DNA from: a virus
Length of the DNA: 64,000 bases
IMG/VR virus record: IMGVR_UViG_3300021963_008193
Location: 1-64,000 of that record
Direction: 5' to 3' (one strand)
This document shows positions 4,967-64,000 of the stretch, one piece after another (the first letter of the stretch is position 1; each line of letters starts with the position of its first letter). The position numbers and the translations under genes were made by a program. A model generated the notes under the pieces. That model ran no database searches and was not told where the DNA came from. It was given only the letters and a program-made list of their open reading frames with translations.

Positions 4967-4967
4967 G

Positions 4968-35033: not shown

Positions 35034-35054
35034 TGTATATAATTTTTTAATTTT

Positions 35055-36113: not shown

Positions 36114-36117
36114 ATTC

Positions 36118-36387
36118 TTAGTATTTATTTAATAATTTTTTATTTAACAAACTGTTAAAGGCCAATTTAAAAGGAATTGATAATTCATTACTTTTCATTG
36201 CCAAGGTTTCATCCACCTCTTCATTCTCAGTCATTATGACATCGACAAGGACTTTAATCATATCGTATTTAACAACACTTATGTGATTTTCAGACATTCC
36301 AGTATAATCCTCAGGTTGTTTAATCGTTGTAAATTCCTCAATTTTATCTAAGTCTAGATAATAATGGTCTCCTAATATTTTTAACAT
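36118..36387 (-). CDS. Hypothetical protein
   Basis: 89-aa ORF within the operon. Confidence 0.65.
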   Translation of the reverse strand: MLKILGDHYYLDLDKIEEFTTIKQPEDYTGMSENHISVVKYDMIKVLVDVIMTENEEVDETLAMKSNELSIPFKLAFNSLLNKKLLNKY

Positions 36388-37717: not shown

Positions 37718-37774
37718 AGACGTTTTTAATATAAATTTATGTCATCATAAATAATTGTAAACTCCTAATGTATT

Positions 37775-39295: not shown

Positions 39296-40010
39296 ATAAA
39301 AAGTTCATTGCGGTTAAATCTTCAACCTCGTTAAAATTATGTGCCTCGAAATCTTTCATAGTTCGTCTATGTTCTAACAATGGAGTGTCGGCTCTACCTC
39401 GATTACATTTTTGTGTAAATTCTTCTTTAGTTTTACCAAAGTAATGATTTAATTGGGCAATATCATCATCACCATTTTCATTAAATGGTCCCATAAACAA
39501 TCTTTTATTTGTGTCTGTTGATGGTTTATTAAAAGGATTATGAACATCCATTATAATATTACTTGATAATTTAATAATGGATTTAACATGATTGTTAATA
39601 GATTTTTGACGTTTTGTAAATCGTTTAAGAACACTGTATTCGTTATTTACTCGTTGATGACCATTGTCACCAAATAAAACCCAGTTAACACCTATTGAGT
39701 GATAATCTAAATAATCTGAGATAAAATCTTTAACATTTTGATGTTTTTTTAAAACTAAAAATTCATCAATATCAAAAAATGCCGCCCAATCATATTTTGT
39801 ATAATTGTTTTGAATAAAATGGTGATAAGCTTCTCGTTGTTTATTAACACCGTCAAAATCTATTGTAATAACGTTAGGTTCGTCAATAGAACACCTCCAA
39901 TCATTTTGATAAATAATAATATCATCAAAACCAAGTTTTTTATTATAATTTATCCATTCTTGGATATACATATCCTCGTTTTTTGCTATACAAACTAATG
40001 CAACCTTCAT
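39267..40010 (-). CDS. Glycosyltransferase (GT92 / GT2_4-like)
   Basis: VCIAKNE..YI.EWI.Y...LGFD.I.IY.N...WAAFFDIDEFL...LNHY..K..EEF. Start 40010 (MKVALV). Confidence 0.8.
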   Translation of the reverse strand: MKVALVCIAKNEDMYIQEWINYNKKLGFDDIIIYQNDWRCSIDEPNVITIDFDGVNKQREAYHHFIQNNYTKYDWAAFFDIDEFLVLKKHQNVKDFISDYLDYHSIGVNWVLFGDNGHQRVNNEYSVLKRFTKRQKSINNHVKSIIKLSSNIIMDVHNPFNKPSTDTNKRLFMGPFNENGDDDIAQLNHYFGKTKEEFTQKCNRGRADTPLLEHRRTMKDFEAHNFNEVEDLTAMNFLYDNDNILNS

Positions 40011-40014
40011 AATG

Positions 40015-40563
40015 TTATATTTTAACCCACCATTGTTGTCCACCAACAACATTTATTTTATCCCCAAATATTTCATCAACGGCTTGCATTACCCCTGGCC
40101 AACCGATAACATAATCGTCCCCACATAATACTCCACCTTTTTTCACTTTAGGTAACCAATTTTTAATATCTTCAATAACAAATTCATATTCGTGGGAGGC
40201 ATCAATATAAACAATATCGAAATATTCATCACTATAGTTTTTAGATTCAGAAATTGAATCATTTTTAATAAGTTCTATTTTATCTAAAATTGGTTTTAAA
40301 TTTTCCAAAGTAATACCATGGTAGTTAATTGTTTTATCGTGTTCAGTAGACCCCTCAAAATGGTCAATTGCTTTATATTCGTATTCAAGGTTTTCATTAA
40401 TTAATATAGTATTCCACATTGAAGTCCCTCGACCTTGGTAAACACCTATTTCGGCAATTTTTATTTTTTGATTGGTATTAATCAAAGGTAAAATTGTTTT
40501 AAGTAATTCACCTTGTTCAGATTCCGAAGACCATCCTTCGATATTATGATAAAAATGCTCCAT
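40015..40563 (-). CDS. Class I SAM-dependent methyltransferase (Methyltransf_24-like)
   Basis: AEIGVYQGRGT...IDHF...DIVYIDASHEYE.V..DI..W.PKVKKGG.L.GDDY. Confidence 0.85.
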   Translation of the reverse strand: MEHFYHNIEGWSSESEQGELLKTILPLINTNQKIKIAEIGVYQGRGTSMWNTILINENLEYEYKAIDHFEGSTEHDKTINYHGITLENLKPILDKIELIKNDSISESKNYSDEYFDIVYIDASHEYEFVIEDIKNWLPKVKKGGVLCGDDYVIGWPGVMQAVDEIFGDKINVVGGQQWWVKI

Positions 40564-40564
40564 A

Positions 40565-41155
40565 TTATATTCCTGTTGAACCGAACCCATTATCTCCTCG
40601 GTCTTTTTCGTTTATTTTATTTTTTTGTACTAAATTAACCCATTTACCATTAACAACAGGACAAAGGACTGCTTGTCCTATTTTCATACCTTTAGTGATT
40701 GTTACAGGATGATTATTCGTATTAAAAATAATTCCTTTAACTTCACCCGTATAACCATTATCAACAGTCCCTGGAGAATTTAAAATCATTAGTCCTTGAT
40801 TAATAGCTAAACCGCTTTTTGACCTAACTTGAATTTCGTATCCGTCTTTAATGTCAAATGACAATCCTGTCGGAACTAACGCTCTCCCAAATGAGGGGAT
40901 AATTACCTCCTCAATAGCATGTAAATCAAACCCCGAATCTGTTTCGTAATTATATTTTGGTGTATACGCTTCAGGATTTAATTTGATAAACCCTAAATCT
41001 AATTGTGGCGTATAGTTCTCCATTTCCTCTTCTAATGATTTCATATCAAGACCATGTTCTTGTAATATTTTGTCATAGTCTAACTCAGAATCATCGGTTT
41101 GTAATAGATATTCTTGTAGTTTTTCTGATTGTTCTTTTAGTGAATCTAAATTCAT
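40565..41155 (-). CDS. dut: Trimeric dUTPase
   Basis: SGFDL, QVRSKSGLA, NSPGTVDNGYTGEV, IGQ, RGDNGFGSTG. Confidence 0.95.
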   Translation of the reverse strand: MNLDSLKEQSEKLQEYLLQTDDSELDYDKILQEHGLDMKSLEEEMENYTPQLDLGFIKLNPEAYTPKYNYETDSGFDLHAIEEVIIPSFGRALVPTGLSFDIKDGYEIQVRSKSGLAINQGLMILNSPGTVDNGYTGEVKGIIFNTNNHPVTITKGMKIGQAVLCPVVNGKWVNLVQKNKINEKDRGDNGFGSTGI

Positions 41156-41865
41156 TATTCTAATTCTTTTAATTTTTTAATAACATCAATTAATACTTGA
41201 ACATCTCGTTCACAGTATTCAGATATTTCTTTTAACATACTCTTTTCCCAATAACATTCGTGAACTTTATCTCCTGTAACATCTCCGTCCTTAGGTGATG
41301 GAACTTCCATACAAGTACACATTAAGTCTAAAGAACCAATTGATGTGTAGGACCCGTATTGCCAAATTTCTTTGGTATCGATAGCCTTAATTTCCCATGG
41401 TTTTGTGTCGTAAGACGGTAAAATTGATGGTGGTAATAAACCATTAACAATCATACGTTTTGCCAACATAGGGATATCAAAATTCTTCAAGTTATGACCA
41501 CATAAAAAGAAGTCTAATTTACCGCATCTTTCAAGTAGTTTCTGAACACCTTTTAATAAAGTTTTTTCATCATCGTCAGAAAATGTTTGTGATTTAGTTT
41601 CTCCGTTATCCATAACGAATGCGACACTAACACAAACTATTTTAGCGAACTCGGGAACAAGTGCCGCTCTTCTTTTAAACATATAATTTTTAGAATCAAT
41701 GTCTACCGACGCGTCTTCAGGGAATCTTTTTTGGAACCAATCAAAATATTTATCAAATTGATTTGCAATTTCAGGATTGAAGTTTTGACATGAGTCATAG
41801 TCAGGACATGCTCCAACCGTCTCAATGTCCAAAAATAAAATTTTGGTAATAGGTATTTTAATCAT
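41155..41865 (-). CDS. PolB-type 3'-5' exonuclease (DNA_pol_B_exo2-like)
   Basis: LFLDIET, GHNLKNFDIP, SLD, YCERDV (ExoI-III motifs). Confidence 0.85.
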   Translation of the reverse strand: MIKIPITKILFLDIETVGACPDYDSCQNFNPEIANQFDKYFDWFQKRFPEDASVDIDSKNYMFKRRAALVPEFAKIVCVSVAFVMDNGETKSQTFSDDDEKTLLKGVQKLLERCGKLDFFLCGHNLKNFDIPMLAKRMIVNGLLPPSILPSYDTKPWEIKAIDTKEIWQYGSYTSIGSLDLMCTCMEVPSPKDGDVTGDKVHECYWEKSMLKEISEYCERDVQVLIDVIKKLKELE

Positions 41866-41868
41866 AAA

Positions 41869-43086
41869 TTATTTAATTAAAGATTTGTAAAATTCTGCTC
41901 TTGTTTTAGTTACAACTCTAAGGTCATAAGTGTCTTTAACAGTTTCATAAAGACGTTCACCCATATCAGTAATCAAATTAGGGTTGTTAACCAATTTCTT
42001 AATAAACTTACTCCAATCTCCATGGTTTCTATTTTCTTGGACCAACATAGCATTACCATCAACAAATTCACCATTTTTTAAACAGTGTTTAAGGTCGATA
42101 GTATAAGGACCAACCTCAGAAGCAATTATCGCTTTTTTATAGAACCCCGCCTCAATAACTTTAAGTTGAGACTTCATTCTATTAAAGATATGATTTTTAA
42201 TTGGTGCTAATGAAATGTCGAATTTAGAATAATTCATTGCGTATGATGTAACGGGTTTTGTCCAAACCCGTTGGTATGGTAATGAAATTCCTGAATCATA
42301 ATTACTTTCTTTAAATTCCATTAGGAAGTTTTTATAATCGTTACCAATTATCTTATAGTTGTCTGTGAAAATTTCTTCATATTTCGACCAAACAGTTTCT
42401 TCAGGTTTAATAGGTCTTTGATTCTTTTCACCTGTCTGTTTATTAATCTCGGTGATTGTTCCTCTCGTATCAAAACCACACAAAACATATTGTATTTTTT
42501 GAGTTAGGTCATTATTTTTAGAAACAAAACCATTCAATAATTTTAAATCGTGTAAGTGAGAAGAACCTCCTAACCAACCAATTCTAATTCTATCAGACTC
42601 CTCTGAAGGTTGTTTAAACTGAGATTCATTTGGGTCTATTGCGTTAGGTAATACTATTACGTTTTTATTAACTTTACGGATTTCATTAGCAAATAAAACT
42701 GTTGTAGTTGTAACATAATCAGCTTCTCGTAAATTAGCAACAATTTTTTCGTGTATCTTGTCTTGAACAATGATACTATGTATTGGGTGTTCCATAGTTG
42801 GTAACCAATAATCATCAATATCTACAATAGTTATAATTCCCATAGATTTTAGGTTCTTAATAATCATTGGGGTGTGTTCATATATGTTTCCAATATTTCT
42901 ATGGACATGAACTATTTGATACTGTTTCCAATAATTTGGGTCATTAATCCTCGGCTCATAATCGATATCTACATGGAAGTCATCATTATACATGTTTTGT
43001 AACATTACGTGAGGGTCCACAGAACGAAATTTACCCACACCTGTTTTATCTGAAGGGAGTACTAATACTTTAATCTTTTGTGTCAT
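41869..43086 (-). CDS. Glycosyltransferase (GT-B/GT4-like, phage type)
   Basis: G.G.FR...PH, DIDDYW, IGWLGGSSH..DL, DISLAPI....FN..KS.LKVIEAG...KAIIAS. Confidence 0.85.
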   Translation of the reverse strand: MTQKIKVLVLPSDKTGVGKFRSVDPHVMLQNMYNDDFHVDIDYEPRINDPNYWKQYQIVHVHRNIGNIYEHTPMIIKNLKSMGIITIVDIDDYWLPTMEHPIHSIIVQDKIHEKIVANLREADYVTTTTVLFANEIRKVNKNVIVLPNAIDPNESQFKQPSEESDRIRIGWLGGSSHLHDLKLLNGFVSKNNDLTQKIQYVLCGFDTRGTITEINKQTGEKNQRPIKPEETVWSKYEEIFTDNYKIIGNDYKNFLMEFKESNYDSGISLPYQRVWTKPVTSYAMNYSKFDISLAPIKNHIFNRMKSQLKVIEAGFYKKAIIASEVGPYTIDLKHCLKNGEFVDGNAMLVQENRNHGDWSKFIKKLVNNPNLITDMGERLYETVKDTYDLRVVTKTRAEFYKSLIK

Positions 43087-45861: not shown

Positions 45862-48675
45862 ATGCCGAGTCAAAATATAAATCAATACGTGTATCCTAAC
45901 CTATTTCCAAAACTTGCTTTGGAAAGTCACGACATGTCTTTAACATCGGATGAGTTAGGTTTTAATCAAGAGGTTGTTTTTTCACCTTATTTGATTGCAC
46001 AGACTTATGGTAACCGACTTCCTTTTTACTTTGATATTAATAATAGTGAAACGGTACAAAATCTAAATTTAACTTATAAAAATTATAATCGAAATAATAT
46101 TTTTGTTTCTCAGAACTATTATAACCCCGATAAAAAAGACTTAACTTGTTTTACAGGGATGAGTTCTTGTGACATTGGATTAACAGGAATAGATAATGGT
46201 TTAGTTACTCAAATGACGGGTCAGACTATTACATTCACTAATGGTTTATTACCTGACACATTAAAATTTGATAGGTTAAGTTTTGACAGAAGATTAAAAT
46301 TATTTCAAGTAACTGGAAACACATCAAACAATATTAGATTCTCAGGGTTCGATAAAACCATTCTATATGAGGTTGTAAGTAAATACAGTCCTTATGAAGG
46401 TAAATACCATGAATTATATGGTGGGTTTTATCAAGGATTTTATAAGTTATTTGGTTATGATTATGAAATTTTTCCTGAAAGAATGAACAAAGGATGGGCG
46501 GTTGAGATGATTCTAAAACCAAGACTATTCAATGAATATACACCATTACCAAACGAAACAACCTTAAATGATTTGTACCCTGGTAATAAAAATACTTTCT
46601 TTTATTTCGGGACTCGAGCGGAAAATAAATTCTATCATCATGCTGATGGTACTCCAAATTGTTTTACAGGTTATACAAGAGTTACGTCTCCTTTAACAGG
46701 TTTAAGTACTTGTGCATGTTGTAATAAAACAATCACAGATAGTCGTTGTATCTATGTTTACCCTCCAAGGTCTGTTGATGGTAAACATGACCCACATATT
46801 AATTACGGTTGTAAATTATGTAATGGTGATAAAACAAAAAGTTTAACATGTGGTTGTAATTGTGGTGATTATGGTTGTGAGGATTGTGGATGGGAATGTC
46901 AAACACATGTTTGTCCTCCTGAACCATCACCTACACCAACCCCAACACCGAGCCCAACGCCTACAAGTGACGGGTGCATCCCAAAACCTGTGTGCACACC
47001 AACATGTACAACATGTGATACTTGTACAGATTGTATTGATTGTGCATCTACAGGTTATACTTCAGTCGAAGATACTTGTGAAAAAGACCCGTTATATGAC
47101 GCAATGTCAAACGCGTTATCTTTTAGACTTTGTGGTGACCCAAAAAACCCACAAATTGGTGTAAAAGTTTTAAGGTTTACAGGTGATTGTACAACAACAG
47201 GTTCTTGTTCTACATCAGGAATAACATATACAACAGGTTATACGGTAACTGAATATTGTACACCACCAATTTATCCAAGATGTCAAAAAGAAAATCCTGC
47301 TTGGTTAGAACAAGAACATTGGTTCCAACTTGATGCGGTATGGGAGAGATATACATGGTTGGATTACTGCGATTTAAATTATAGGGGTGGTTTAGGTGAC
47401 ATAACAAAAGAATTTTATCTTGAGTCATTAGCCAATAATACTACTTCATTAGTAACTGCACAATATACTCATTCAGGAACAACTCCACCACAACAAATCG
47501 AACTTGTTAATTTAAACGAGAAATGGTTACTTGATAAACATTATAGAAAAGGTAGATTAAAATTTTACATTAACGGTAAAATTTTCCATACGTTGGAGGA
47601 TTTTGAAGAACTTATTCCAAGAGCGTTAAACACTGATAAAGAAAAACAGGTTGGTGTTCCGTTTAATGTATCGTGGGGAGGTGGTACTCAAGGACTAAGA
47701 GAGAATTTAACGTTCTCATCTATGACATTACCATACGGACCTTATATTCAAGACCCTGAATGTCTCCCAATTAATGATTTAACAGGTACAACATTTAACG
47801 GTTTAAAAACAAATATTCAAATAGAACAAAACTTTGCTGGTAACTTTGAAGGTGGAATTTCCCAATTCAGAATGTATGTGGAACCATTATCAGCACCTGA
47901 AGTAAAACACAACTTTAAATTATTAAAGAATATCTTTAGGATGTTTAATCCTGATTGTCCTGATTGTTCGACTGATGTTTGTTTAACTGATGATTTCACT
48001 TATGACATTGTTGAAAACCCACAACAATTAGGAAGAATACACATTCCTGATAACAGAGATAACAAATATTTGATTGAGAATAAATTAACTTTAAAACCAT
48101 CATTACTAACCTCAAAAAATTGGGAGGACAATATTTGGTGGGGAAACCAAGGTCAGACACCTATGTGTGTTGGATATGCTTGGGCTCATTGGATTGAGGA
48201 TGGCCCAATTACTCACAAGTCAAAAACTCGACCTGTTGTTTCACCAATTCTAATTTATAAAGAAGCGCAAAAACTTGATGAATGGGTTGGGGAAAATTAT
48301 GATGGAACATCTGTTAGAGGTGGTGCGAAATATTTAAAAAAGACAGGAAAGATATCATCATATCTTTGGACATTCGACCTTAATGTTATGATTAATACTG
48401 TTTTAACAGTTGGTCCTGTTGTAGTTGGTACTAATTGGTATAACACCATGTTTTATCCTGACCGTAATGGTCTATTAAGAGTTGGTGGTAGAGTTGCAGG
48501 AGGTCATGCTTATGAAATAAATGGTGTTGACACGGTTAAACAATTATTTAGAATCAAAAATAGTTGGGGTAGAACTTGGGGTCAACAAGGACACGCATAT
48601 ATATCGTTCTCTGATATGAGAAGATTAATTAACGAAAACGGTGAGGTTTGTTTAGCCGTTGAAAATAGATTTTAA
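45862..48675 (+). CDS. Cys-rich LamG-like structural protein fused to a C-terminal papain-like (C1) cysteine peptidase
   Basis: NQGQTPMCVGYA (Q, C), GGHAY (H), IKNSWG..WG..G.AYIS (N); G.LKFYING and F.GGISQFRMY..PL (LamG-like); many CxxC/CxC motifs. Confidence 0.8.
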   Translation: MPSQNINQYVYPNLFPKLALESHDMSLTSDELGFNQEVVFSPYLIAQTYGNRLPFYFDINNSETVQNLNLTYKNYNRNNIFVSQNYYNPDKKDLTCFTGMSSCDIGLTGIDNGLVTQMTGQTITFTNGLLPDTLKFDRLSFDRRLKLFQVTGNTSNNIRFSGFDKTILYEVVSKYSPYEGKYHELYGGFYQGFYKLFGYDYEIFPERMNKGWAVEMILKPRLFNEYTPLPNETTLNDLYPGNKNTFFYFGTRAENKFYHHADGTPNCFTGYTRVTSPLTGLSTCACCNKTITDSRCIYVYPPRSVDGKHDPHINYGCKLCNGDKTKSLTCGCNCGDYGCEDCGWECQTHVCPPEPSPTPTPTPSPTPTSDGCIPKPVCTPTCTTCDTCTDCIDCASTGYTSVEDTCEKDPLYDAMSNALSFRLCGDPKNPQIGVKVLRFTGDCTTTGSCSTSGITYTTGYTVTEYCTPPIYPRCQKENPAWLEQEHWFQLDAVWERYTWLDYCDLNYRGGLGDITKEFYLESLANNTTSLVTAQYTHSGTTPPQQIELVNLNEKWLLDKHYRKGRLKFYINGKIFHTLEDFEELIPRALNTDKEKQVGVPFNVSWGGGTQGLRENLTFSSMTLPYGPYIQDPECLPINDLTGTTFNGLKTNIQIEQNFAGNFEGGISQFRMYVEPLSAPEVKHNFKLLKNIFRMFNPDCPDCSTDVCLTDDFTYDIVENPQQLGRIHIPDNRDNKYLIENKLTLKPSLLTSKNWEDNIWWGNQGQTPMCVGYAWAHWIEDGPITHKSKTRPVVSPILIYKEAQKLDEWVGENYDGTSVRGGAKYLKKTGKISSYLWTFDLNVMINTVLTVGPVVVGTNWYNTMFYPDRNGLLRVGGRVAGGHAYEINGVDTVKQLFRIKNSWGRTWGQQGHAYISFSDMRRLINENGEVCLAVENRF

Positions 48676-48678: not shown

Positions 48679-50220
48679 ATGAGTCAAAGTATTATTATAC
48701 GAAGTATTAACTACGATGGAGAAATGGCAAACATCCTCTTCAACCCATACGGGGAAGAAACTGTTTTTAACTTAGGGGACCATAACCTCCCATTCGTATT
48801 TAACCCTTCATTATTAGAACCACCAAAAGATGTTTATGGTACATACACTATTTTAGTATTAGGTTCCGATTGCCCAAATTTTTTAAATGTCCCAAGACCT
48901 ACACCTACACCTACACCAACTCCGAGCGTTACTAAAACATCAACACCTACTGTTACCCCAACAATTACCCCAACACCTACATTTGACCCTTGTAAAGTTC
49001 CAACTCAAACACCAACAGTAACTACAAGTCCAACGGTAACACCAACAATGACCATGACACCTAGTCAAACTTGTACTAATCCTTGTGGATGTCCTGAACC
49101 AAGTAAAACACCTAAACCTCGTAAAACACCTACACCTACACCAAGTGCCACAAGTGGGTACTGTTATCCTACTCCAACACCTACACAGACAATAACTCCA
49201 ACAAATACTATAACACCTACACATACTGCGACGCCGACTATAACACCAAGTACATCACCATTAACATGTGATTTTACTTATGAAATTTTAGATGTGACAA
49301 ATACCCCAACTCCAACCCCAACAATTACACCTACAATATCATTAACTCCCACAATGACCCCAACTAACACCATTACACCAACCCCTACGGAAAGTCTTAC
49401 ACCAACCCCTACAGTTACACCTACTGAATCATTAACACCAACTCCAACACCTACCATTACTCCAACCAATACCCTAACACCAACACCAACAATAACACCT
49501 ACGGAATCATTAACACCAACGCCAACACCAACAATAACTCCTACGGAATCATTAACACCAACACCAACACCAACAATAACCCTCACACCAACCTCAACCT
49601 TAACCCCAACACCTACGCCTACACCATATAGAAATTTCTTAATTACAAATTTAGATACTGATGGTTGTGTTGTTTCATCTATTGGAGCTAATTTCAGTAC
49701 GATGTTTAATTTCTCTTATCCAATTATAAATGGACAAAGTGGTAACGGATTCTTGTATTCAAACATTGTAGGAGACTATATGACTTTTACAATAACAGGA
49801 GGTACTGTTAATGGTGTTAATGTTTATGAGAATGGTATATTGACTAGCGGATTTACAGGATTTGACCCAGTAACGTACACCTACTATCTAACTCAAACTA
49901 TTGGTGATAATGATTTATTGTACGTTGAGGTATTTAACCCTTTAAATCCACCGAGTCCAACCCCAACAATAACCCCTACAATTACACCAACTCAAACAAT
50001 AACCCCTACAATTACCTCAACTCAAACATTAACCCCAACACCTACCTCGACTCAAACATTAACTCCAACACCTACCGAAACTTTAACCCCTACCCCGACT
50101 ATCACACCAACTGAAACATTAACTCCGACTCCAACTCCGACCGATACAGGAAGTTATCTATTACAAGCAAATGGATTCTTCGTTTTACAGGCGGATGGGT
50201 CAAAGATTATAATAACATAA
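48679..50220 (+). CDS. Mucin-like Pro/Thr-rich fibre/adaptor protein
   Basis: N-terminal Ig-like domain, long TPTPTITPT tracts, C-terminal [20 protein letters not shown]. Confidence 0.75.
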
Positions 50221-50242: not shown

Positions 50243-50878
50243 ATGCCGAATTTACCGATATCCTCATTACCCGAATTAACCGCAATCACCTCAACTGCAG
50301 AATATGTTGTTGAGCTTTCAGGTACAACTTATAAAATAAAACAAGGAACATTATCACCTTTACCAACTGTTTATGGTTTATATTCTCAAACCGCAAATAG
50401 TGTAACGGTTAGTGCAACAACGGTTGAGTCGACATTAATTGATGGTGGTGTTGGTACGTTAACAGTGCCTGCAAACGGATTTAAAATTGGTGATAGTTTT
50501 AGGGCCGATTTTGGCGGGTTAATATCCGCTAAAAATAATGATACAATTAGAATTAGAGTTAAAACAGGGTCGGTCATCCTTGCTGATAGCGGACCTCAAA
50601 CTATGGTATCATCAACAAATGATGTTTGGCAATTTTCAATAAATTTTACGGTTAGGACTATAGGTGGACCAGGAGTTGCTTCAATGGTATCGTTAGGAGT
50701 ATTCCATACAGAAAAACAATCAAACGGTACTCCAAGAGGTTTTGCGTTTAATACAGTAAATAATACAACATTTGATACCACCGTTTCAAATACTTTAAAT
50801 GTTACTGTTGAGTTTAGTAGTAACAGTGGTTTAAACTCAATTTACTCAGATATATTCGTTTTAAATAAAATTTATTAA
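50243..50878 (+). CDS. Fibre/tip protein with N-terminal ISxLP motif
   Basis: MPNLPISSLP; beta-rich C-terminal domain; own late motif at 50223-50230. Confidence 0.6.
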   Translation: MPNLPISSLPELTAITSTAEYVVELSGTTYKIKQGTLSPLPTVYGLYSQTANSVTVSATTVESTLIDGGVGTLTVPANGFKIGDSFRADFGGLISAKNNDTIRIRVKTGSVILADSGPQTMVSSTNDVWQFSINFTVRTIGGPGVASMVSLGVFHTEKQSNGTPRGFAFNTVNNTTFDTTVSNTLNVTVEFSSNSGLNSIYSDIFVLNKIY

Positions 50879-51153
50879 TGAGCACTGTTTTACAAATATT
50901 ATCTAATAACTATAGTGGACAGTCCGCTGATATAACCTTTTATCCTTGTTCAGGTGGGATTATTAATATAGGAACCGTTACGTTACCCTACAACTATTAT
51001 AGTGATGATTTTACAGGATTGTATTCGATATATATACCTCATTATGATAAAACATGTGAAGTTGATGTCCCGTGTACCTCAACGTTATATCTGACAAATG
51101 AATCAGGAAATAGACTTATTTCTGAGAATGGGTTCTATATAATCGTAGAATAA
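50878..51153 (+). CDS. Short adaptor, paralogue of 48679-50220 without the PT stalk
   Basis: I.S.NY.G..A.I.F.P.....N.G...LP....... G.Y.I...C...VP shared; C-terminal YLTNESGNRLISENGFYIIVE. Confidence 0.7.
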   Translation: MSTVLQILSNNYSGQSADITFYPCSGGIINIGTVTLPYNYYSDDFTGLYSIYIPHYDKTCEVDVPCTSTLYLTNESGNRLISENGFYIIVE

Positions 51154-55481: not shown

Positions 55482-58400
55482 ATGATTGAAATAACAGGGG
55501 CAACGGGCTCAGGGCCATATGATATTATTATATGTGACATTACGTTGACATATTGTTACCCCGTTGCTTATTCTGTCTCAATTCCACCAACATATTACGC
55601 AACAATTCCATCTGAACTTGAGGGGGTTACTCAAGTTGCGGTTCAATTAATTGATTCTTTAGGTTGTCCTTGCGTTCAGATATGTGATTGTCCAATACCG
55701 TCAGTTACACCAACGTTAACACCTACGGTTACGCCGACAATGATTGTTGAATGCAATTGTATTACATTTGAAAACACTTTATCGGACCCACAAGATTATA
55801 CATATACAAATTGTGATGGAACTGTGATTTACGGTTCTATTTATGGTGAAACTTCACTTTATGTTTGTGGTAAATTACCAAGTACAAATAGTGAATATGT
55901 TAATATAACAATCTCTTCATTTTGTGTTGGAGGTTCTTGTCCTCCACCAACACAAACACCAACACCAAGTATCACCCCAACAAATAGTTTACCACCAATT
56001 ACTGGTATTTTTGAAGACTGTTGTGACCCAACAAATATAATGGCTATTACAACAATACCATTTAGTTTTTATCCTTTATCAGGAGTTTATTACGTTGAGA
56101 GTTCAGGATTTAATGGTTGTGTGAATTTATTAACAACAACATTCTATGATAATGTTTATACTTATGTTGACGCAACAACCTTTATTGATTGTATGGATTG
56201 TCAAATATCATACCCATGCTCAACTCCTACACCAACAATGACCCCAACTAATACCACAACCCCTACATTTACACCGACAAATACCCCAACAATGACAGAA
56301 AGTCCTACACCGACACTTACTCAAACTATTTCACCAACAATAACTCCTACAAATACAATTACCCCAACGTTAACTCCTACAATAACCCCAACAAATACAT
56401 TAACCGTTACTCCAACTAATACAATTACTCCAACTAATACTATCACACCTACAAATACGATTACACCAACTAATACTATCACACCAACCCATACAATTAC
56501 CCCAACAAATACTATCACACCTACAAATACTATCACACCTACAGTAACTCCAAGTATTTCATTGACACCTACTCAAACAGTGACACAAACCCCAACTCAA
56601 ACCATAACCCCTACTATTTCATTAACACCAACTAAAACTGTAACACCAACAATAACTGCGACTATTTCATTAACACCAACTAAAACTGTAACACCAACAA
56701 TTTCATTAACACCAACTAATACTATTACCCCAACAATAACTCCTACAAATACGATTACGCCTACTCAGACTATTACACCTACAAATACTATTACACCAAC
56801 TCAGACTATTACACCAACTCAAACTGTAACACCATCAATAACACCTACAATATCATTATCACCTAGAAATACCTCAACGCCTACTCAAACTATTACTCCA
56901 ACCGTTACTCCGACAATTTCGTTAACACCAACGATTTCGTTAACGCCAACACAAACCCCAACTAAAACTACGACCCCTACAATTTCGTTAACACCAACAC
57001 AAACTCCGACTAAAACTACAACCCCTACAATTTCATTAACCCCGACACAAACTATAACGCCAACAGTTACCCCTACAATTTCACTAACTCCAACTATTTC
57101 ATTAACTCCGACAAGAACAATTACACCAACTGTAACCCCAACTATTTCATTAACTCCAACTAATACAAATACTCCAACAATAACACCTGCTCGTACATCA
57201 ACCCCAACTCAAACAATTACCCCAACAAATACTTTAACACCTACTAATACAGGTACTCCTGGTGTTTCTGTAACTCCTACAATTTCATTAACTCCAACAC
57301 AAACTATAACACCGACAGTTACTCCTACAATTTCATTAACTCCAACACAAACTATAACACCGACAGTTACCCCTACAATTTCATTAACTCCAACACAAAC
57401 TATAACACCGACAGTTACCCCTACAATTTCATTAAGTCCAACAATATCACTAACACCTACGATTTCATTAACTCCAACCAATACCCCAACTAAAACTGTT
57501 ACACCAAGTATCACATTGACACCGACAAATACAAATACTCCGACAATGACAATTACACCAACTGTTACACCTACAATTTCATTAACTCCAACTAATACAA
57601 ATACACCGACTCAAACACCAACTAAAACTACAACACCAACTATCTCATTAACACCTACAATATCCTTAACGCCAACGATTTCGTTAACTCCAACTCAGAC
57701 TATAACTCAAACAGTAACACCTACGATTTCATTAACTCCAACAATATCCTTAACGCCAACTAACACTCAGACACCAACTAACACGCCTGCACGTACATCA
57801 ACCCCAACACAAACATTAACTCCAACAGTGACTCCAACAATATCCTTAACGCCAACGATTTCATTAACACCAACAATTTCATTAACCCCTACTCAAACAA
57901 TAACGCCAACTAATAAATCACACCGACAGTTACACCTACAATTTCATTAACACCAACTAATACGGGAACACCAGGAAATTCTGCAACACCAACACAAACA
58001 TTAACCCCTACCCAAACTCCGACTAAAACCGTGACACCAACGATTTCATTAACACCGACTCAAACATCTACAGTAACTATTACTCCAACAATTTCATTAA
58101 CACCAACACAAACTCCGACTAAAACTGTTACACCAACAATATCATTAACTCCAACCCAAACAATTACCCCAACTGTTACACCGACAATTTCATTAACCCC
58201 TACAATATCGTTAACTCCAACCCAAACAATTACCCCAACTGTTACACCTACAATTTCATTAACTCCAACTAATACAAATACACCGACTCAAACACCAACT
58301 AAAACTACAACACCAACTATCTCATTAACACCTACAATATCCTTAACCCCAACTAGAACTATTACGCCTACAATATCGTTAACACCGACTCAAACACCAA

Positions 58401-59281
58401 CTAAAACTACAACACCTACAATTTCGTTAACTCCAACGATTTCATTAACTCCTACAATTTCGTTAACTCCAACGATTTCATTAACTCCAACTATAACCCC
58501 AACACCAACTATAACTCAAACACCAACAAAAACAGTAACACCAAGTGTTAGTAATAAACCTACTGACACACCTGCGGTAACTCCTACAATTTCGTTAACA
58601 CCAACCATAACACCAACAAAAACTGTTACTCCGACCATAACACCAACAAAAACTGTTACTCCGACCATAACACCAACAAAAACTGTTACTCCGACCATAA
58701 CACCAACTCCAAGTGCAACATGTCTTACTTATCGTTTAACGGCGGGTAAAACTAATGCCACTTTCACATTCACACCTTGTTGTGGGGAACCAACAACATC
58801 ACCTGTAACACTTGTAAGTACTGATAGTATTGACGTTTGCTCAACAACATTACCAACAACTGCAAATCCTGGAGCAACGATAGTTGGACTGAATACCCCA
58901 TGTACATTATGTAATGATGCGATAGTGGCGATTAATTATAGAACGTCTAATAGTGGAACAACCACAAGCCAAACAGGAACTTTAAGTTACACATTAAATG
59001 GGGGGTCACCTATAGTGATAAGTTCAATACTACGGTCAAATTTAGGGACAAATTATGTTGGTTTTACTCCTATTACATGTAATTATGGTGACGTTTTAGT
59101 ATTTAATTTTTCAGCAAATGTTGGTGGGGATAATTCATGGGGTGTTGGTAACTTAGGACCATATAATAATATTGGATGTTTTACGGCAAACGATTACACC
59201 TATACCGTGACATCAACAGGTCTTACTAATCTATACTTCAACATTACTTCCCAAAATACCATATGGGGGGCAACTTGTTAA
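55482..59281 (+). CDS. Very long mucin-like Pro/Thr protein with Cys-rich ends, split by a 1-nt frameshift near 57915 (ORFs 55482-57950 and 58031-59281)
   Basis: The repeat register [19 protein letters not shown] continues in the -1 frame from 57917; AAT AA ATC is where AAT ACA ATC is expected. Restored length about 1266 aa. Confidence 0.7.
56222..58715 (+). repeat. Degenerate tandem repeats encoding TPTISL / TPTQTI / TPTNTI / TPTKTV
   Basis: About 2.5 kb of A/C-rich, nearly G-free low-complexity sequence with near-exact blocks (e.g. 48-nt x3 at ~57272-57435, 30-nt x3 at ~58605-58707). Confidence 0.9.
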
Positions 59282-59340
59282 TTTAAGTAATCTATTTATT
59301 TTAAACGAAAACAAATTACTTTTTTCATAAAAAAAGAAGT

Positions 59341-60588
59341 ATGAGAATATTTGTGCAAATCGCATCCTACAGGGACCCCCAATTATTACCGACAATAAAA
59401 AATATGTTTGAAAATGCTAAGAAACCTAAAAATTTGGTTTTAAGTATTTGTAGACAATATCATCCTGAAGATGGTTTTGATAATCTTGATGAATACAGAG
59501 ATGATGATAGATTTAGAATTATTGATATTTTATATTCGGAATCAAAAGGAGTATGTTGGGCAAGAAATTTAACACAACAACAATATCAAGGTGAGGAATA
59601 CACTTTACAGATTGACTCTCATATGAGATTTGAAAAGAATTGGGACGATACCCTAATAAAAATGATTAAACAACTTCAAAAGAAAGGATTTGAGAAACCA
59701 TTATTAACAGGTTATGTTTCTTCTTTTGACCCCGATAATGACCCGCAAGGAAGAATCCAAGAACCATGGAGAATGGTATTTGATAGATTTATTCCTGAAG
59801 GTGCGGTTTTCTTTTTACCTGAAACAATACCAGGGTGGAAAGAAATGAAAGAACCTGTAACCGCAAGATTTTATTCTGCTCACTTCGCGTTTACAATAGG
59901 TAAATTCAGTGAAGAGGTTCAACACGACCCTGAATTTTATTTTCATGGTGAAGAAATTTCAATTGCCGCAAGAGCTTACACTCATGGGTATGATTTATTC
60001 CACCCACATAAAGTAGTGATTTGGCACGAATATACTCGTAAAGGTAGGACCAAGCAATGGGATGATGATAAAGAATGGGTTAAGAAAAATGATGTGTCTC
60101 ATGCCAAAAATAGACAACTATTCGGAATGGATGATGAGGAAGTTACATTAGAATTTGGTAAATACGGTTTTGGAACTGAAAGAACATTAAAAGAATATGA
60201 AATTTATTCAGGGTTGAGGTTTTCAAGAAGAGCGGTTCAACAATATACTTTAGATAAATTATACCCACCAAACCCTCAGGTTTTTGATACTGAAGAAGAA
60301 TGGGAAAATAGTTTTGCGAGTATCTTTAAACATTGTATCGATGTTGGATTTTACCAAGTCCCTGAAAAAGATTATGAGTTTTGGGTAGTAGCGTTCCATG
60401 ACGAAAATGACGAAACCATTTTTAGAAAAGATGCTGACATACATGAGATTAATCGAATGATGACAGACCCTGATGGGTATTGTAAAGTATGGAGAGATTT
60501 CCAAACAACACATAAACCAAAATATTGGGTAATATGGCCTTATAGTACATCAAAAGGTTGGTGTGAAAGATTAACAGGAAATTTATAA
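59341..60588 (+). CDS. GT60-like polypeptide/hydroxyproline N-acetylglucosaminyltransferase (Pfam GlcNAc family)
   Basis: IFVQIASYRDP.L..TI, ICRQ, SKGVCWAR, Y.GE.Y.LQIDSHMRF..NWD, SAHFAF, F.GEEI...AR..THGYD.F.P....WH.Y. Confidence 0.85.
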   Translation: MRIFVQIASYRDPQLLPTIKNMFENAKKPKNLVLSICRQYHPEDGFDNLDEYRDDDRFRIIDILYSESKGVCWARNLTQQQYQGEEYTLQIDSHMRFEKNWDDTLIKMIKQLQKKGFEKPLLTGYVSSFDPDNDPQGRIQEPWRMVFDRFIPEGAVFFLPETIPGWKEMKEPVTARFYSAHFAFTIGKFSEEVQHDPEFYFHGEEISIAARAYTHGYDLFHPHKVVIWHEYTRKGRTKQWDDDKEWVKKNDVSHAKNRQLFGMDDEEVTLEFGKYGFGTERTLKEYEIYSGLRFSRRAVQQYTLDKLYPPNPQVFDTEEEWENSFASIFKHCIDVGFYQVPEKDYEFWVVAFHDENDETIFRKDADIHEINRMMTDPDGYCKVWRDFQTTHKPKYWVIWPYSTSKGWCERLTGNL

Positions 60589-60592
60589 TTAT

Positions 60593-61264
60593 ATGAACAC
60601 ATTTAATTTACCAGAGTTAGAAACTCTAATTTACGAAAAAACAAATAGTTTTATTATCATTGGGGCCTTTGATGGGGAAAGTCATGATAATTTTTTTACT
60701 AAAATACAAGAAAAACCAAATAAAAATAACAATACGATAATTTTTGTAGAGCCCGTAGAAAAGTACTACAACGAGTTAACAAAAAAAGTTAGTTCATTGG
60801 TTAATTATAACGTTATATGTGAGAACACGGCAATTTCAGATAAAGTTGAGTCTATTGAAATGGTTTCTGTTAAACCTAATTTATTGGATAAATACGGTTG
60901 GTATATAGAAGGGTGTGCGTGTGTTGTTGAGAACAATACCCCGTTAAATATCTACATGAAAGAGGTAGAGGAAATCGACATTGATAGAGAAGAAATTACA
61001 ACTATTACGTTTAATGATTTATTATTTAAACATGGTTTACCTACCATCGATTTTTTACAAATTGATACTGAAGGTTATGATGAAAGAATTTTAAATACCA
61101 TTAATTTTGAATCATTGAACATCAAATTTATAAAATTTGAAAGACATTATTTAAGTGAAGGATTCATCGAGGTCTTTATAAATAAATTAGAGGTACTTGA
61201 TTATTCATATTATTGGGACAATGATAATTACTACTTTGTTAAAAATTCAATTATTAATGGCTAA
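60593..61264 (+). CDS. FkbM-family methyltransferase
   Basis: IIGAFDG..HD, FVEP, AIS, IDFLQIDTEGYD..IL. Confidence 0.85.
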   Translation: MNTFNLPELETLIYEKTNSFIIIGAFDGESHDNFFTKIQEKPNKNNNTIIFVEPVEKYYNELTKKVSSLVNYNVICENTAISDKVESIEMVSVKPNLLDKYGWYIEGCACVVENNTPLNIYMKEVEEIDIDREEITTITFNDLLFKHGLPTIDFLQIDTEGYDERILNTINFESLNIKFIKFERHYLSEGFIEVFINKLEVLDYSYYWDNDNYYFVKNSIING

Positions 61265-62834
61265 TATATCTTTTTACGGTTCACATAACTCTTCCGTTGT
61301 TGTTGAGAACAATGGTAAAATATTAACGGTTATTGAAGTTGAGCGTTTTTTAAACGTTAAAAATGCGGGGTATGGACAATATCTAACTTCCAATACAAGA
61401 TTCTTTTTAATAAATGAAATTTTAAAATATATTAAGAACGAATATGGTATAAGTGAATTTGAAACTTGTTACTACTCTAATACAGATACAATTGAAGGCC
61501 CTACTAAGGTTCATTATGAAAAAATGATACCCGCTAAAAATTATGTAAATGTTTTACACCATCTGTCTCACGCGGCTTGTGCGTTTTACCAATCAAAATA
61601 TAATGAAGGGTTAATTGTTTCATTTGATGGTGGTGGTAGTGATGGGTTTTTTAACATATATCACGCAAAGAATCGAGATGAAATTATTTTAATTGATAAA
61701 TTTAATATTGATTTAGGGTTTGCATATATGTCATTTGGTGATTACTTAAACGATATAAGACAGGAGCCTGCATTAAACATTGGTAATTTAGTTTATTCAG
61801 GTAAAATAATGGGATTATGTTCTTATGGTACAATTAACGAAATGTGGTTACCTTATTTTGAGAAATATTATAGAGCAAAACCTGATGGTTTAAATTATTT
61901 AGAATTATTAAATCAATTAGGTGAAGAAACTGGTTTAATATTTAATCGTAATGATAGGTTAACAGGTCAAACATCTTGGGACGTTGCTAAGACTTCACAA
62001 ATCGCTTTTGAAAATGTTTTTATGGAGATAATAACTCCATTCTTAGAAATGTTTCCTAAATTACCTTTATTATTAACGGGGGGTTGTGCTTTAAATATTT
62101 TACTAAATACAAAATTATATCATGAATTAGAAAGAGATGTATTTGTCCCGCCAAATCCAAATGACTGTGGGATGGCTTCAGGTATGATTTTATTACATAT
62201 GAAACCTAAAGAGGTTATTGATTTAACGTATTCAGGGATTCCAATTTTAGATAAAAATACATTAATGATGATTTCCGAAAATCAATATAATACCACCCCA
62301 ATAGATACCGACACAGTTGTTAATGATTTAGTTTCAGGTAAAATTATTGGTGTTGTTAGAGGAAACTCGGAGCATGGACCAAGAGCTTTGGGGAATAGAA
62401 GTATAATTTGTGACCCATCTCACCCTGATATGAAAGACATACTAAATACCAAAGTTAAAAATAGAGAGTGGTATCGACCATTCGCACCTGTTTGTAGATT
62501 AGAAGATGTTTCTAAATACTTTAAATTTAGTGGTGAAAGTAGATGGATGAGTTTTTGTCCTGAAGTACGAGAGGAATGGAGGGAAAAATTAACCTCAATA
62601 ACACATATTGATGGGACCGCTAGAGTTCAAACAGTAACCAAAGAAGAAAATGAATGGTTATATAATTTAATAACCGAATTTGAAAAGGTTTCAGGAATTG
62701 GGGTTCTTCTAAACACATCATTTAACGTTAATGGTAAACCAATATTATCAACCTATAAAGACGCGTTACATGTATTTAAAACCACACAAATGGATAAACT
62801 AATATTGGAAGATTATTACATAATTAACAAATGA
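61257..62834 (+). CDS. O-carbamoyltransferase (NodU/CmcH/TobZ family)
   Basis: GSHNSS, EVERF...K, HHLSHAA.AFY.S, SFDGGG, GKIMGL..YG, GGCALN, ND.G...G, EHGPRALGNRSI, K.REWYRPFAP, HIDGTARVQTV, LLNTSFN..G.P. Start 61257. Confidence 0.93.
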   Translation: MANISFYGSHNSSVVVENNGKILTVIEVERFLNVKNAGYGQYLTSNTRFFLINEILKYIKNEYGISEFETCYYSNTDTIEGPTKVHYEKMIPAKNYVNVLHHLSHAACAFYQSKYNEGLIVSFDGGGSDGFFNIYHAKNRDEIILIDKFNIDLGFAYMSFGDYLNDIRQEPALNIGNLVYSGKIMGLCSYGTINEMWLPYFEKYYRAKPDGLNYLELLNQLGEETGLIFNRNDRLTGQTSWDVAKTSQIAFENVFMEIITPFLEMFPKLPLLLTGGCALNILLNTKLYHELERDVFVPPNPNDCGMASGMILLHMKPKEVIDLTYSGIPILDKNTLMMISENQYNTTPIDTDTVVNDLVSGKIIGVVRGNSEHGPRALGNRSIICDPSHPDMKDILNTKVKNREWYRPFAPVCRLEDVSKYFKFSGESRWMSFCPEVREEWREKLTSITHIDGTARVQTVTKEENEWLYNLITEFEKVSGIGVLLNTSFNVNGKPILSTYKDALHVFKTTQMDKLILEDYYIINK

Positions 62835-63724
62835 AAAATACAAAACTAGTTACATCGTTTTACACCGAAATAGACGGACACCCATTTTACGGACATGCCG
62901 AGCAATCAAGACACGAAAGATATTTACATTCTATGAGAGTTCTAAATAACATGGGGATTGAGATTGTCTGTTATTGCAATGATACTCAATTAGAGTTATT
63001 AACAGAGTATGTAAGTGAATTCAATCTAAATAACATTACATTAAAAGTTTCTAATTTATCTGATTCACTATTTGCTAGTCGAATGAAAGATATTAAAGAA
63101 AAAACTAATAATTTTAAATTTTATCATGAAGTTGATTGGAACAAACTTTTTTTATTAGAAAAGGAATATGATGAAAGTTATGACTATCTGTATTGGATTG
63201 ATGCTGGGTTATCTCACCATGGAATATTTCCTAAAAAATATAATCCGAATTCTCATTTGGCAACAGGGATGTCAAGTGACTTTAACACATATTCATTTAC
63301 AAATCTGTTTACTAAGGAATTATTCGGAGGAATAAATAACTTTGTCGGAGACAAATTACTTAGTTTAGACAATGAATTAAAATTCCATAACATTTACGAA
63401 CTAAATGAAGTTCTTGAGGGTAATTTTACATTTGATTCATTATCCGTTGGGGGAATAATCGGAGGTCATGTGAGTAAGATTAAATGGTTAATTGATAAGT
63501 TTAATTTAATGGGTGAGAAGTCGTTAAGTAAAAATGTAATTTTAAATCACGAAGCAATAATTTCATTTATCAAGGAAGAAACCCCTGAGAATTTCGAAAG
63601 ATTTATTTTCCAAACATGGTATCATGAAGATACTGAAGGTATGGATGATTATATAATAAAAGAACAAATACACTTTAGTCATTTTTTTGATATGATTAAT
63701 GAAAAACATATAACAAATAATTAA
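62831..63724 (+). CDS. HtrL/YibB (WlaTC)-like glycosyltransferase
   Basis: LVTSFY, K...L, YDYLYWIDAGLSH, VGGIIGG, E.I.S. Confidence 0.6.
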   Translation: MKNTKLVTSFYTEIDGHPFYGHAEQSRHERYLHSMRVLNNMGIEIVCYCNDTQLELLTEYVSEFNLNNITLKVSNLSDSLFASRMKDIKEKTNNFKFYHEVDWNKLFLLEKEYDESYDYLYWIDAGLSHHGIFPKKYNPNSHLATGMSSDFNTYSFTNLFTKELFGGINNFVGDKLLSLDNELKFHNIYELNEVLEGNFTFDSLSVGGIIGGHVSKIKWLIDKFNLMGEKSLSKNVILNHEAIISFIKEETPENFERFIFQTWYHEDTEGMDDYIIKEQIHFSHFFDMINEKHITNN

Positions 63725-63725
63725 C

Positions 63726-64000
63726 ATGGATAATTTTTTTGATAAGTCATTACATTTTTTAGGGAAAACTAACAATACCATAACCGCATTAAACATTGGG
63801 TCAATGGACGGTGTGATGTTCGATGAAATGATTGGGTATACTCAAATGTATAATTTTAAAGTTCTATATGTTGAACCAATACCTTATTTATTTGACAGAT
63901 TAAAAAGTAATATTGGTGACGGAGGGTTATTTGAAAATAGTGCAATATCTGACTACGATGGTGAGATTGAGATGATGACAATTGATAGAGAAGTTATTGA
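63726..64000 (+). CDS. Second FkbM-family methyltransferase (3' end truncated)
   Basis: MDNFF...LNIGSMDGVMFD...LYVEPIPYLFDRLK.N......ENSAISD.DGEIEM; the frame runs off the window. Confidence 0.8.
   Translation, partial: MDNFFDKSLHFLGKTNNTITALNIGSMDGVMFDEMIGYTQMYNFKVLYVEPIPYLFDRLKSNIGDGGLFENSAISDYDGEIEMMTIDREVI

Follow-up and report, generated by a model that had tools for sequence, protein, structure and literature searches.

The first 64 kb of a 74,965-bp IMG/VR virus contig (IMGVR_UViG_3300021963_008193; CheckV completeness ~26%), a stretch of 64,000 nucleotides hereafter called the window, carry close to their 3′ end a gene for a long Thr/Pro-repeat protein, which is followed by the gene of a glycosyltransferase (GT) of family GT60 and by further genes of glycan-modifying enzymes. 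Analysis of this locus and of its counterparts in public data led us to consider it likely that the cassette encodes a cytoplasmic mucin-type O-glycosylation system for the Thr/Pro tracts in structural proteins of the phage. Judged from the genes, this large, uncultured T4-type phage probably coats fibre-like proteins of its own with sugar while still in the host cell. Such a system had been proposed in an earlier annotation made from the letters of the window (hereafter the sequence-only reading). The evidence comes from the family and predicted fold of the GT60 enzyme, from its recurrent pairing with Pro/Thr-rich genes in relatives and in other lineages, and from a hypervariable set of glycan genes downstream of it.

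The GT60 enzyme, its Thr/Pro-repeat neighbour and the downstream genes

The GT60 gene is separated from the Thr/Pro-repeat gene by 59 nt (59282-59340), the same distance as given in the sequence-only reading. Its product matched the profile PF11397 at E 3e-72 with 244.5 bits against a cut-off of 21, over profile positions 94-350 and 2-43, and the motifs from which the family had originally been recognised were all present, namely IASYRD (residues 7-12; given as ASYRD), DSH (92-94) and GEE (203-205). The residues D92, H94, E204, E205 and H229 were invariant in 43 homologues down to 36% identity, and D92-S-H94 together with H229 is the predicted DxH/distal-His Mn2+ site. The AlphaFold2 (AF2) model, with a predicted local distance difference test (pLDDT) score of 95.4, showed a GT-A fold, in which the catalytic GT-A domain spans about residues 1-330 and a beta-rich C-terminal domain about residues 332-415. 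The first beta-strand begins at residue 3, and there is no signal peptide, membrane anchor or N-terminal hydrophobic segment; lacking a leader or anchor, the enzyme must therefore act in the cytoplasm. The fold search placed the model closest to mucin-type initiating polypeptide transferases, including GT27, in line with the kinship to GT27 stated in the sequence-only reading; PDB sequence searches with the single protein and with a 43-sequence profile gave no real match, the link to GT27 coming from the fold search only. Genomic context supports a putative polypeptide acceptor. The sequence-only reading had left room for hydroxyproline, the acceptor residue in Skp1. A search of this contig, of three relatives with complete or near-complete genomes and of phage XacN1 gave no prolyl-hydroxylase of the PF13640 type (2OG-FeII_Oxy_3; other oxygenase families were not searched); the Skp1-type hydroxyproline route is therefore unlikely and was set aside, Thr/Ser being favoured.

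The Thr/Pro-repeat gene is broken in the window. Under translation table 11 the window shows two open reading frames (ORFs), 55482-57950 (822 aa) and 58031-59281 (416 aa), both rich in TPTxxx repeats, and the 822-aa ORF ends in out-of-register residues. Around the frame slip, the DNA reads ACT AAT AAA TCA where the repeat predicts ACT AAT ACA ATC. In Logan, contigs of the public runs X1 (535 nt, depth 18) and X2 (451 nt, depth 8.4) matched positions 57641-58174 and 57725-58174, respectively, with an extra C behind 57915 as the sole difference, and this base yields a single 3,801-nt ORF of 1,266 aa, which restores the ~1266 aa reported in the sequence-only reading. On comparison with these contigs, the break in the window is best put down to faulty assembly or to a minor variant; the contig itself may have been assembled from X1 or X2. 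The main Pro/Thr tract, described earlier as ~830 aa long, was found as such, its measured extent being residues 232-1098 (867 aa; ~56175-58777). Thr accounts for 42.6% of its residues (369), Pro for 17.6%, Ile for 10% and Ser for 6.9% (60), and the motif TPT occurs 136 times. The tract is flanked by an N-terminal region of 231 aa with 15 Cys in Cys-rich modules (~55482-56174) and a C-terminal region of 167 aa with 8 Cys (~58778-59281). The three other Thr/Pro genes named in the sequence-only reading also carried tracts (Table 1).

The genes 3′ of GT60 are separated by gaps of 1-4 nt or overlap by 4-8 nt. This tight packing, the FkbM gene and the NodU/CmcH-type gene agreed with the operon drawn in the sequence-only reading; its HtrL-like member stood in part, as the clear HtrL match lies mostly outside the window and the gene at 62831-63724 gave a weak pairwise match only. 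In the carbamoyltransferase, both Carbam_trans_N and Carbam_trans_C domains were over threshold, and the ATG at 61257 was favoured over the longest-ORF start at 61197 because homologues align from about residue 19-24. Against the NodU equivalog NF041651 it reached 173.5 bits with a cut-off of 1000, by which the protein is classed as a family member and not as a NodU orthologue. The 297-aa protein had no Pfam, PHROG or NCBIfam match and resembled the HtrL domain of the 790-aa protein encoded next only weakly, in a pairwise comparison (E 5e-4); it is possibly glycosyltransferase-like.

The 790-aa protein, whose gene runs 2.1 kb past the window end, combines an FkbM domain (residues 25-201; PF05050, 60.8 bits, cut-off 22.7), an HtrL_YibB domain (residues 235-487; PF09612, 3.7e-16, 60 bits vs 24.1, and under the NCBIfam equivalog cut-off at 56.6 vs 264.9) and a GT-A domain (~525-790) with an invariant EDD. 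To our knowledge, no activity has been described for HtrL_YibB proteins. Residues 235-790 form the conserved tandem-GT partner of GT60. AF2 modelled this part with pLDDT ~90 as two GT-A-like domains in which the motifs WxD(A)G and EDD are invariant, whereas the FkbM domain folded poorly (pLDDT <35) because most aligned homologues lack that domain. The best PDB matches of residues 235-790 in Foldseek were the tandem GT-A enzymes Mimivirus R699, LARGE1, LH3, COLGALT1, K4CP and heparosan synthase, at E ~1e-10 and at domain level only (template modelling score ~0.2, large global root-mean-square deviation). From this model we infer an extending role for the tandem-GT protein, which is possibly bifunctional.

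A promoter-like motif, TATTTAT, lies 48 nt upstream of the GT60 start. In the window, 16 of the 48 TATTTAT sites fall within 5-80 nt upstream of a same-strand gene start (actual distances 9-67 nt), about 10-fold over expectation, and the genes so preceded include the terminase, the fibre genes at 45862, 50243 and 51178, and GT60. The sites, for example at 6362, 12733, 16440, 45844, 50223, 51156 and 59293, often read (A/G)TATTTAT(A/T). TATTTAT is thus a candidate promoter element of this phage, and its presence before both GT60 and structural genes suggests their late co-expression.

Table 1. Features of the window, with positions counted from its first nucleotide
Feature	Coordinates	Strand	Basis or remarks
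Thr/Pro-repeat protein gene, likely acceptor	55482..59281	+	1,266 aa; ORFs and composition; intact in public-run contigs
One-base gap splitting the Thr/Pro gene	57911..57916	+	Frame slip; extra C in X1/X2 contigs
TATTTAT promoter-like motif	59293..59299	+	Upstream of GT60
Soluble GT60-family (PF11397) glycosyltransferase, proposed initiating polypeptide N-acetylhexosamine (HexNAc) transferase	59341..60588	+	415 aa
FkbM-family methyltransferase (variable cassette)	60593..61264	+	PF05050 1.1e-10, 42.3 bits vs cut-off 22.7
NodU/CmcH-type carbamoyltransferase (variable cassette)	61257..62834	+	PF16861 6.9e-64, 214.9 bits (cut-off 27); PF02543 6.2e-22, 78.9 bits (cut-off 24)
297-aa protein, remote HtrL-like paralogue, WIDAGL motif	62831..63724	+	Pairwise match to HtrL domain of next gene
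790-aa protein gene, FkbM + HtrL_YibB + GT-A	63726..66098 (window part 63726..64000)	+	Continues beyond the window
513-aa protein, 359-residue Pro/Thr tract, further likely acceptor	48679..50220	+	Tract scan
937-aa protein, 53-residue Pro/Thr linker, C-terminal papain-like peptidase	45862..48675	+	phrog_16701 1.5e-54; PF00112 2.4e-5
181-aa protein, mostly (S/T)P-rich and (TPATG)n tracts, 142 tract residues	19777..20322	+	Tract scan

Gene order and cassette diversity in relatives and other lineages

Relatives were found at 332 loci in IMG/VR, and the best 80 (GT60 75-93% identical), which include contigs of 272-322 kb that are 91-100% complete by CheckV, were analysed. They reduced to 63 distinct loci, 60 of which had enough upstream sequence for evaluation. 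A pairing was counted when a co-oriented ORF with at least 40 Pro/Thr-tract residues ended less than 400 nt upstream of GT60. The results showed such a Pro/Thr-rich ORF directly upstream of GT60 in 48 of the 60 distinct loci, the shortest tract having 43 residues and the longest more than 1,794; in complete genomes as a whole, Pro/Thr-rich genes make up just 3.3-4.3% of the total. The sequence-only reading had named a lack of association between GT60 and Pro/Thr genes in relatives as grounds against itself; the association was found here, and also in a marine contig, Gemmatimonadota, Vicinamibacterales and, on a genome-wide scale, XacN1 (below). In many relatives the contig breaks just upstream of GT60, as expected for a long repeat there. 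The upstream Pro/Thr proteins are modular: most have shuffled Cys-rich modules in common, several groups lack any shared non-tract domain, and 36 of the 80 loci have the N-terminal modules of the 1,266-aa protein in conserved form on the upstream side of GT60.

The conserved order is a Pro/Thr protein, GT60, a variable cassette of 0.6-7 kb, the tandem-GT core (77/80), a Pro/Thr-tailed protein (73/80; up to 1,909 aa in relatives) and a DNA polymerase. In our contig, a 186-aa protein with a Pro/Thr/poly-Thr tail is encoded 3′ of the 790-aa gene, and a family-B DNA polymerase gene comes then. The genes between GT60 and the tandem-GT gene are a hypervariable glycan cassette, comprising 98 protein clusters at 50% identity. 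They include glycosyltransferases (GT25, GT10, GT11, GT34, GT2, GT7 and PLOD-type), sugar O-methyltransferases (FkbM, TylF, CmcI), acetyltransferases, DegT, nucleotidyltransferase and GNAT proteins, and a few sugar-nucleotide enzymes; no lipid-carrier-initiating transferase, flippase or polymerase was present among the 25 listed of the 28 cassette Pfam families. The FkbM gene at 60593-61264 had no close homologue at the same position in the 80 relatives. The carbamoyltransferase was without a counterpart in these closest loci, and copies of 54-66% identity adjoin GT60 in the more distant loci L114, L120 and L122. By this comparison, both genes are members of the hypervariable cassette and are not conserved as part of the system among the closest relatives, which narrows the place given to them in the sequence-only reading, although the carbamoyltransferase is common to XacN1-like phages. 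Homologues of the 297-aa protein (24-30% identity) occurred in 23 of the 80 loci. The change of cassette among phages with ~80% identical GT60 points to strong diversifying selection on what would be the virion surface, for which host recognition, resistance to proteases or grazers, and sticking to polysaccharide matrices are possible pressures.

In the phage collection, only the jumbo phages XacN1 (Xanthomonas), Xoo-sp13, CM1 (Stenotrophomonas) and RAS14 carry this GT60 (45-48% identity). The module order of XacN1 and RAS14 is that of the window: GT60, carbamoyltransferase (45%), a homologue of the 297-aa protein (27-28%) and the tandem GT (39-41%); XacN1 ORF333 corresponds to the carbamoyltransferase and ORF332, in the same position, to the 297-aa protein, and the RAS14 counterparts likewise. 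XacN1 has 19 Pro/Thr-rich ORFs (15 genes), with tracts in large proteins adjoining tail sheath genes. Its virions showed at least two periodic-acid-Schiff-positive bands, and its authors proposed phage glycosyltransferases, including the GT60 gene ORF334, as the cause of the staining (PMC5852040). Among the other GT60-positive genomes, Pro/Thr-rich content amounted to 5 genes in this 75-kb fragment, 11 ORFs in G001 and 14 ORFs in G002. The three PF11397-negative phages nearest by major capsid protein had 2 marginal Pro/Thr-rich ORFs (Flavobacterium phage immuto, 160 kb) or none (Microcystis phage Mel-JY01, 190 kb; the first 400 kb of LR756508). That GT60 presence tracks Pro/Thr-tract content is suggestive, as a non-statistical comparison of four genomes with three from few lineages.

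Pairing with Pro/Thr-rich proteins was also observed in other lineages. On the marine contig L132 (GT60 49% identity), GT60 is flanked by two (TP)n-linker proteins, one of which contains a crAss muzzle-protein domain and is therefore a virion protein. In Gemmatimonadota (L127 7314-7952, from a Gemmatimonadaceae metagenome-assembled genome (MAG); L124, L129), a Pro/Thr-tailed PqqD-domain protein is encoded 49-130 nt upstream of GT60, and in a Vicinamibacterales MAG a twin-arginine (Tat) signal protein with a Pro/Thr-rich C-terminus ends 3 nt upstream of it. The GT60-tandem-GT pair was present in 33 of 85 distant loci, in bacterial MAGs of several phyla. In Burkholderiaceae and relatives, GT60 lies in a type VI secretion system (T6SS) cluster of the order TssF, TssG, TssA, fimbrial/MrkD-like protein, GT60, ClpV, and in L151 (Sphingobacterium zeae, 2881-9311) and L185 (Chitinophaga oryziterrae) a full-length GT60 (41-42%) follows a C39-peptidase ATP-binding cassette (ABC) exporter and two proteins of unknown family. 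By their gene content, the T6SS and exporter neighbourhoods are protein or peptide contexts for bacterial GT60. The scan for P/T/S-rich ORFs in high-GC bacterial loci was dominated by out-of-frame artefacts.

Several further observations were made on these homologues. Public data matches comprised more than 7,000 GT60 protein clusters at 90% identity. Public data also contain giant proteins (1,000-2,500 aa; P0122-P0134, P0143) in which as many as four or five GT60 domains occur. An IMG/VR scan with the distant homologue P0147 gave only three loci, 25% identical, and added nothing. The Gemmatimonadota upstream protein is ~210 aa long, with a PqqD domain of the type that recognises ribosomally synthesized and post-translationally modified peptides (RiPPs), a hydrophobic segment and a Pro/Thr-rich tail. 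The T6SS-cluster homologue is shorter (43-47% identity over about the first 310 residues), as in L159 (Cupriavidus sp. OV096, 2837-12124), with a like arrangement in L158, L163, L171, L180, L135 and L148; an apparent Pro/Thr tract in its fimbrial-like neighbour was dismissed because it lies upstream of the real start codon. The Sphingobacterium/Chitinophaga arrangement resembles loci for glycosylated bacteriocins.

Proposed mechanism, alternatives and known systems

These findings are consistent with the following course of events. Late in infection, Thr and possibly Ser residues in the Thr/Pro tracts of fibre-like phage proteins would receive a first HexNAc, most likely N-acetylglucosamine (GlcNAc) by family precedent, which the soluble GT60 would take from a UDP-sugar. 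The main acceptor would be the product of the gene immediately upstream, the 1,266-aa protein; additional acceptors would be encoded at 48679, 45862 and 19777 and, in the case of the Pro/Thr-tailed protein, directly 3′ of the cassette. The tandem-GT-A protein (HtrL-like plus GT-A) would then extend the primer sugar, and strain-variable enzymes, here two FkbM domains, the NodU/CmcH-type carbamoyltransferase and the remote HtrL-like protein, would decorate the glycan with strain-specific sugars and methyl and carbamoyl groups. The expected products are extended, heavily glycosylated stalks or linkers on virion appendages, the glycan of which would differ among closely related phages.

Several points weigh against this proposal. 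The 1,266-aa protein had no Pfam match, and its sole PHROG match, phrog_15511 of unknown function, lies inside the repeat tract; its placement in the virion is suggested by the neighbouring fibre-like genes only. Pro/Thr linkers are common in organisms without GT60, so glycosylation is not required for them. Twelve of the 60 loci lacked a Pro/Thr gene directly upstream, most of these having one within a few kb, and the stained XacN1 bands were reported without protein identity and without note of Pro/Thr tracts (PMC5852040). In the strongest of the alternatives, the targets of GT60 and its partners would be other proteins of the phage or of the host, and not (or not mainly) the tracts, which would be plain extended linkers whose adjacency reflects the gene order of a fibre module. 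This alternative would account for XacN1 and RAS14, which keep the module with their Pro/Thr genes away from GT60, and for the Bacteroidota and Burkholderiaceae isolate genomes, in which GT60 stands beside a peptide exporter or in a T6SS cluster with no adjacent Pro/Thr protein; moreover, most of the 80 loci are close relatives, so that much of the synteny stems from one clade and is partly inherited and not independent. However, unrelated lineages (the crAss-like contig, Gemmatimonadota, Vicinamibacterales) also show the pairing, it recurs with flanking proteins that are not related to one another, the genome-wide Pro/Thr content of the four genomes and the three follows GT60, and the family precedent is Thr in Pro/Thr-rich mucin-like domains. 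We therefore regard non-tract targets as unlikely.

A role in building or altering a host envelope glycan (lipopolysaccharide (LPS), capsule or S-layer glycan), for example in blocking superinfection, appears more doubtful still. Two of the families, GT25 and HtrL_YibB, take their names from LPS loci, a hypervariable cassette is reminiscent of O-antigen loci, and such a role has been proposed by Aravind and co-workers for glycosyltransferase clusters of jumbo cyanophages (PMC7824862). Yet neither the listed cassette families nor the window operon contain a lipid-carrier-initiating transferase, flippase, polymerase or membrane protein, the enzyme proposed for initiation has a fold closest to polypeptide transferases and is soluble, and the locus lies inside a fibre gene block behind a motif common to structural genes. 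Glycan hypermodification of the phage DNA would have a precedent in the glucosylated hydroxymethylcytosine (hmC) of T-even phages. Bulky, oligosaccharide-like modification of thymidine also exists in phage YerA41 (PMC9023294), the DNA polymerase gene borders the cassette in this phage, in XacN1 polymerase and RNase H are encoded close by, and the GT-A domain of the 790-aa protein gave a faint match (E 0.0057) to phrog_842, a T-even HMC glucosyltransferase. Against this stand the protein-directed nearest structures and bacterial contexts of GT60 and the Pro/Thr association, which would be left unexplained. In addition, the sole thymidylate-synthase-family gene in complete relatives passes the NCBIfam equivalog cut-offs (338 vs 325; 315 vs 108) as a true thymidylate synthase, and there is therefore no sign of a hydroxymethyl-pyrimidine route as far as thymidylate-synthase-family genes, the only ones searched, can tell. 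DNA modification is in our view highly improbable, and O-glycosylation of the Thr/Pro tracts is preferred.

Several of the closest known systems are eukaryotic. In protists, Thr residues of Pro/Thr-rich mucin-like domains receive alpha-GlcNAc from GT60 enzymes, and the protist pp-alphaGlcNAc-transferases are Golgi type II membrane proteins. The phage enzyme is like Dictyostelium pp-alphaGlcNAcT2/GntB and Trypanosoma cruzi OGNT in its PF11397 domain, its DxH plus distal-His site and its presumed Thr acceptors in Pro/Thr tracts; unlike these membrane-anchored enzymes with a stem, it is soluble, belongs to the bacterial cytoplasm and has an extra beta-rich C-terminal domain of ~85 aa. It may thus work like the GntB/OGNT subgroup without being a member, as it lacks the type II topology. 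Gnt1, which places GlcNAc on hydroxyproline-143 of Skp1, is likewise a soluble, cytoplasmic GT60, but needs a prolyl 4-hydroxylase and acts at a single Skp1 site, whereas the candidate phage acceptors are long repeats. The GT27 polypeptide GalNAc-transferases of animals and Toxoplasma belong to a different CAZy family, share 11-15% identity with the phage GT60 and carry a C-terminal ricin-type lectin domain, none of which was recognised in the phage protein. For the 556-aa GT60 partner, Mimivirus R699, LARGE1, LH3/COLGALT1 and K4CP are tandem GT-A enzymes with likeness at domain level only.

Among viruses, chloroviruses and Mimivirus have their own glycan machinery, as here, but are eukaryotic viruses with eukaryotic hosts. 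The module of XacN1 (ORF334-ORF330; also Xoo-sp13, CM1 and RAS14) is homologous and has the same order, but differs in its gammaproteobacterial host and in the Pro/Thr genes lying elsewhere. Mycobacteriophages encode glycosyltransferases beside their structural genes, and these enzymes act on virion proteins in the cytoplasm of the host (Freeman et al. 2023, as cited in PMC12619734). These systems differ in acting on short C-terminal extensions of capsid or tail-tube subunits, with other enzyme families and without mucin-like repeats or GT60. The ‘moraphage’ group of PMC12619734 comprises aquatic jumbo phages outside the T4 group with several glycosyltransferases; GT60 or Pro/Thr is not mentioned there, and a link to the present lineage could not be made. 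Phage virion glycosylation in mycobacteriophages and GT60/GT27 mucin-type initiation in eukaryotes are thus already known, and a link between GT60 and Pro/Thr-repeat proteins of phages was described in none of the papers found by our literature search (GT60 with phage; phage proteins that are mucin-like or rich in threonine).

More broadly, we tentatively propose that GT60 and the HtrL/GT-A tandem transferase could form a widespread prokaryotic module for cytoplasmic O-glycosylation of Thr/Pro tracts, a wider claim about which we are less confident than about the phage system itself. Freshwater jumbo, crAss-like and XacN1-like phages would use it to build mucin-like fibres, with the cassette diversifying the glycan in an O-antigen-like arms race, and Gemmatimonadota/Acidobacteriota would use it on Pro/Thr-tailed proteins, as a counterpart of eukaryotic mucin-type O-glycosylation. 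If the phage system works as proposed, mucin-type glycosylation is not confined to eukaryotic secretory pathways, and a very abundant group of aquatic jumbo phages would carry, on its appendages, proteins each covered by hundreds of O-glycans. A direct test is open to the cultured XacN1, which has the homologous module, many Pro/Thr-tract genes and reported Schiff-stained virion proteins, and the enzymes could serve as soluble tools for making mucin-like glycoproteins in bacteria.

Phage context and other genes of the window

The window has a GC content of 29-37% and contains genes of T4 type for the terminase, the portal (gp20) and the major capsid protein (gp23). GT60 homologues of 58-81% identity lie on contigs that had been binned with Bacteroidota MAGs (Saprospiraceae, Cytophagaceae, Chitinophagia), and the nearest cultured relatives by capsid have Flavobacterium and Microcystis as hosts; a Bacteroidota host is plausible for this phage.

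Some further features were noted. The 513-aa Pro/Thr protein weakly resembles, in its N-terminal 60 aa and its C-terminal hairpin, a tract-less 91-aa protein at 50878-51153. The portal protein (8379-10199) has a C-terminal region with an unusual poly-Pro/Gly segment (AAPPPPPGGDEGGAPPPPPPPGPEPGGG) followed by an acidic tail; the ‘Pro/Thr’ signal of this protein was due to that segment, which is not a Thr/Pro tract, and was dismissed. In the complete 322-kb relative G001 (loci L088, L090, L092), the thymidylate synthase gene (C1:5332-7607, minus strand) matches the profile in three separated pieces, a pattern like that of T4 td, suggesting an intron or inserted element. Further glycosyltransferase genes, interspersed with other genes, form a second group on the minus strand at 34230-43086, with phrog_7162 at 41869-43086 and a faint galactosyltransferase match at 37775-39295; it may feed the same glycan as the GT60 cassette or a different one. 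The major capsid protein (14439-16340) has 633 aa with its best gp23-profile stretch at residues 381-618, and may thus have a long N-terminal extension or insertion relative to T4 gp23. Directly 3′ of the capsid gene, a 711-aa protein (16507-18642) combines a galactose-binding-like domain associated with the type IX secretion system (T9SS) and a PKD-like domain.

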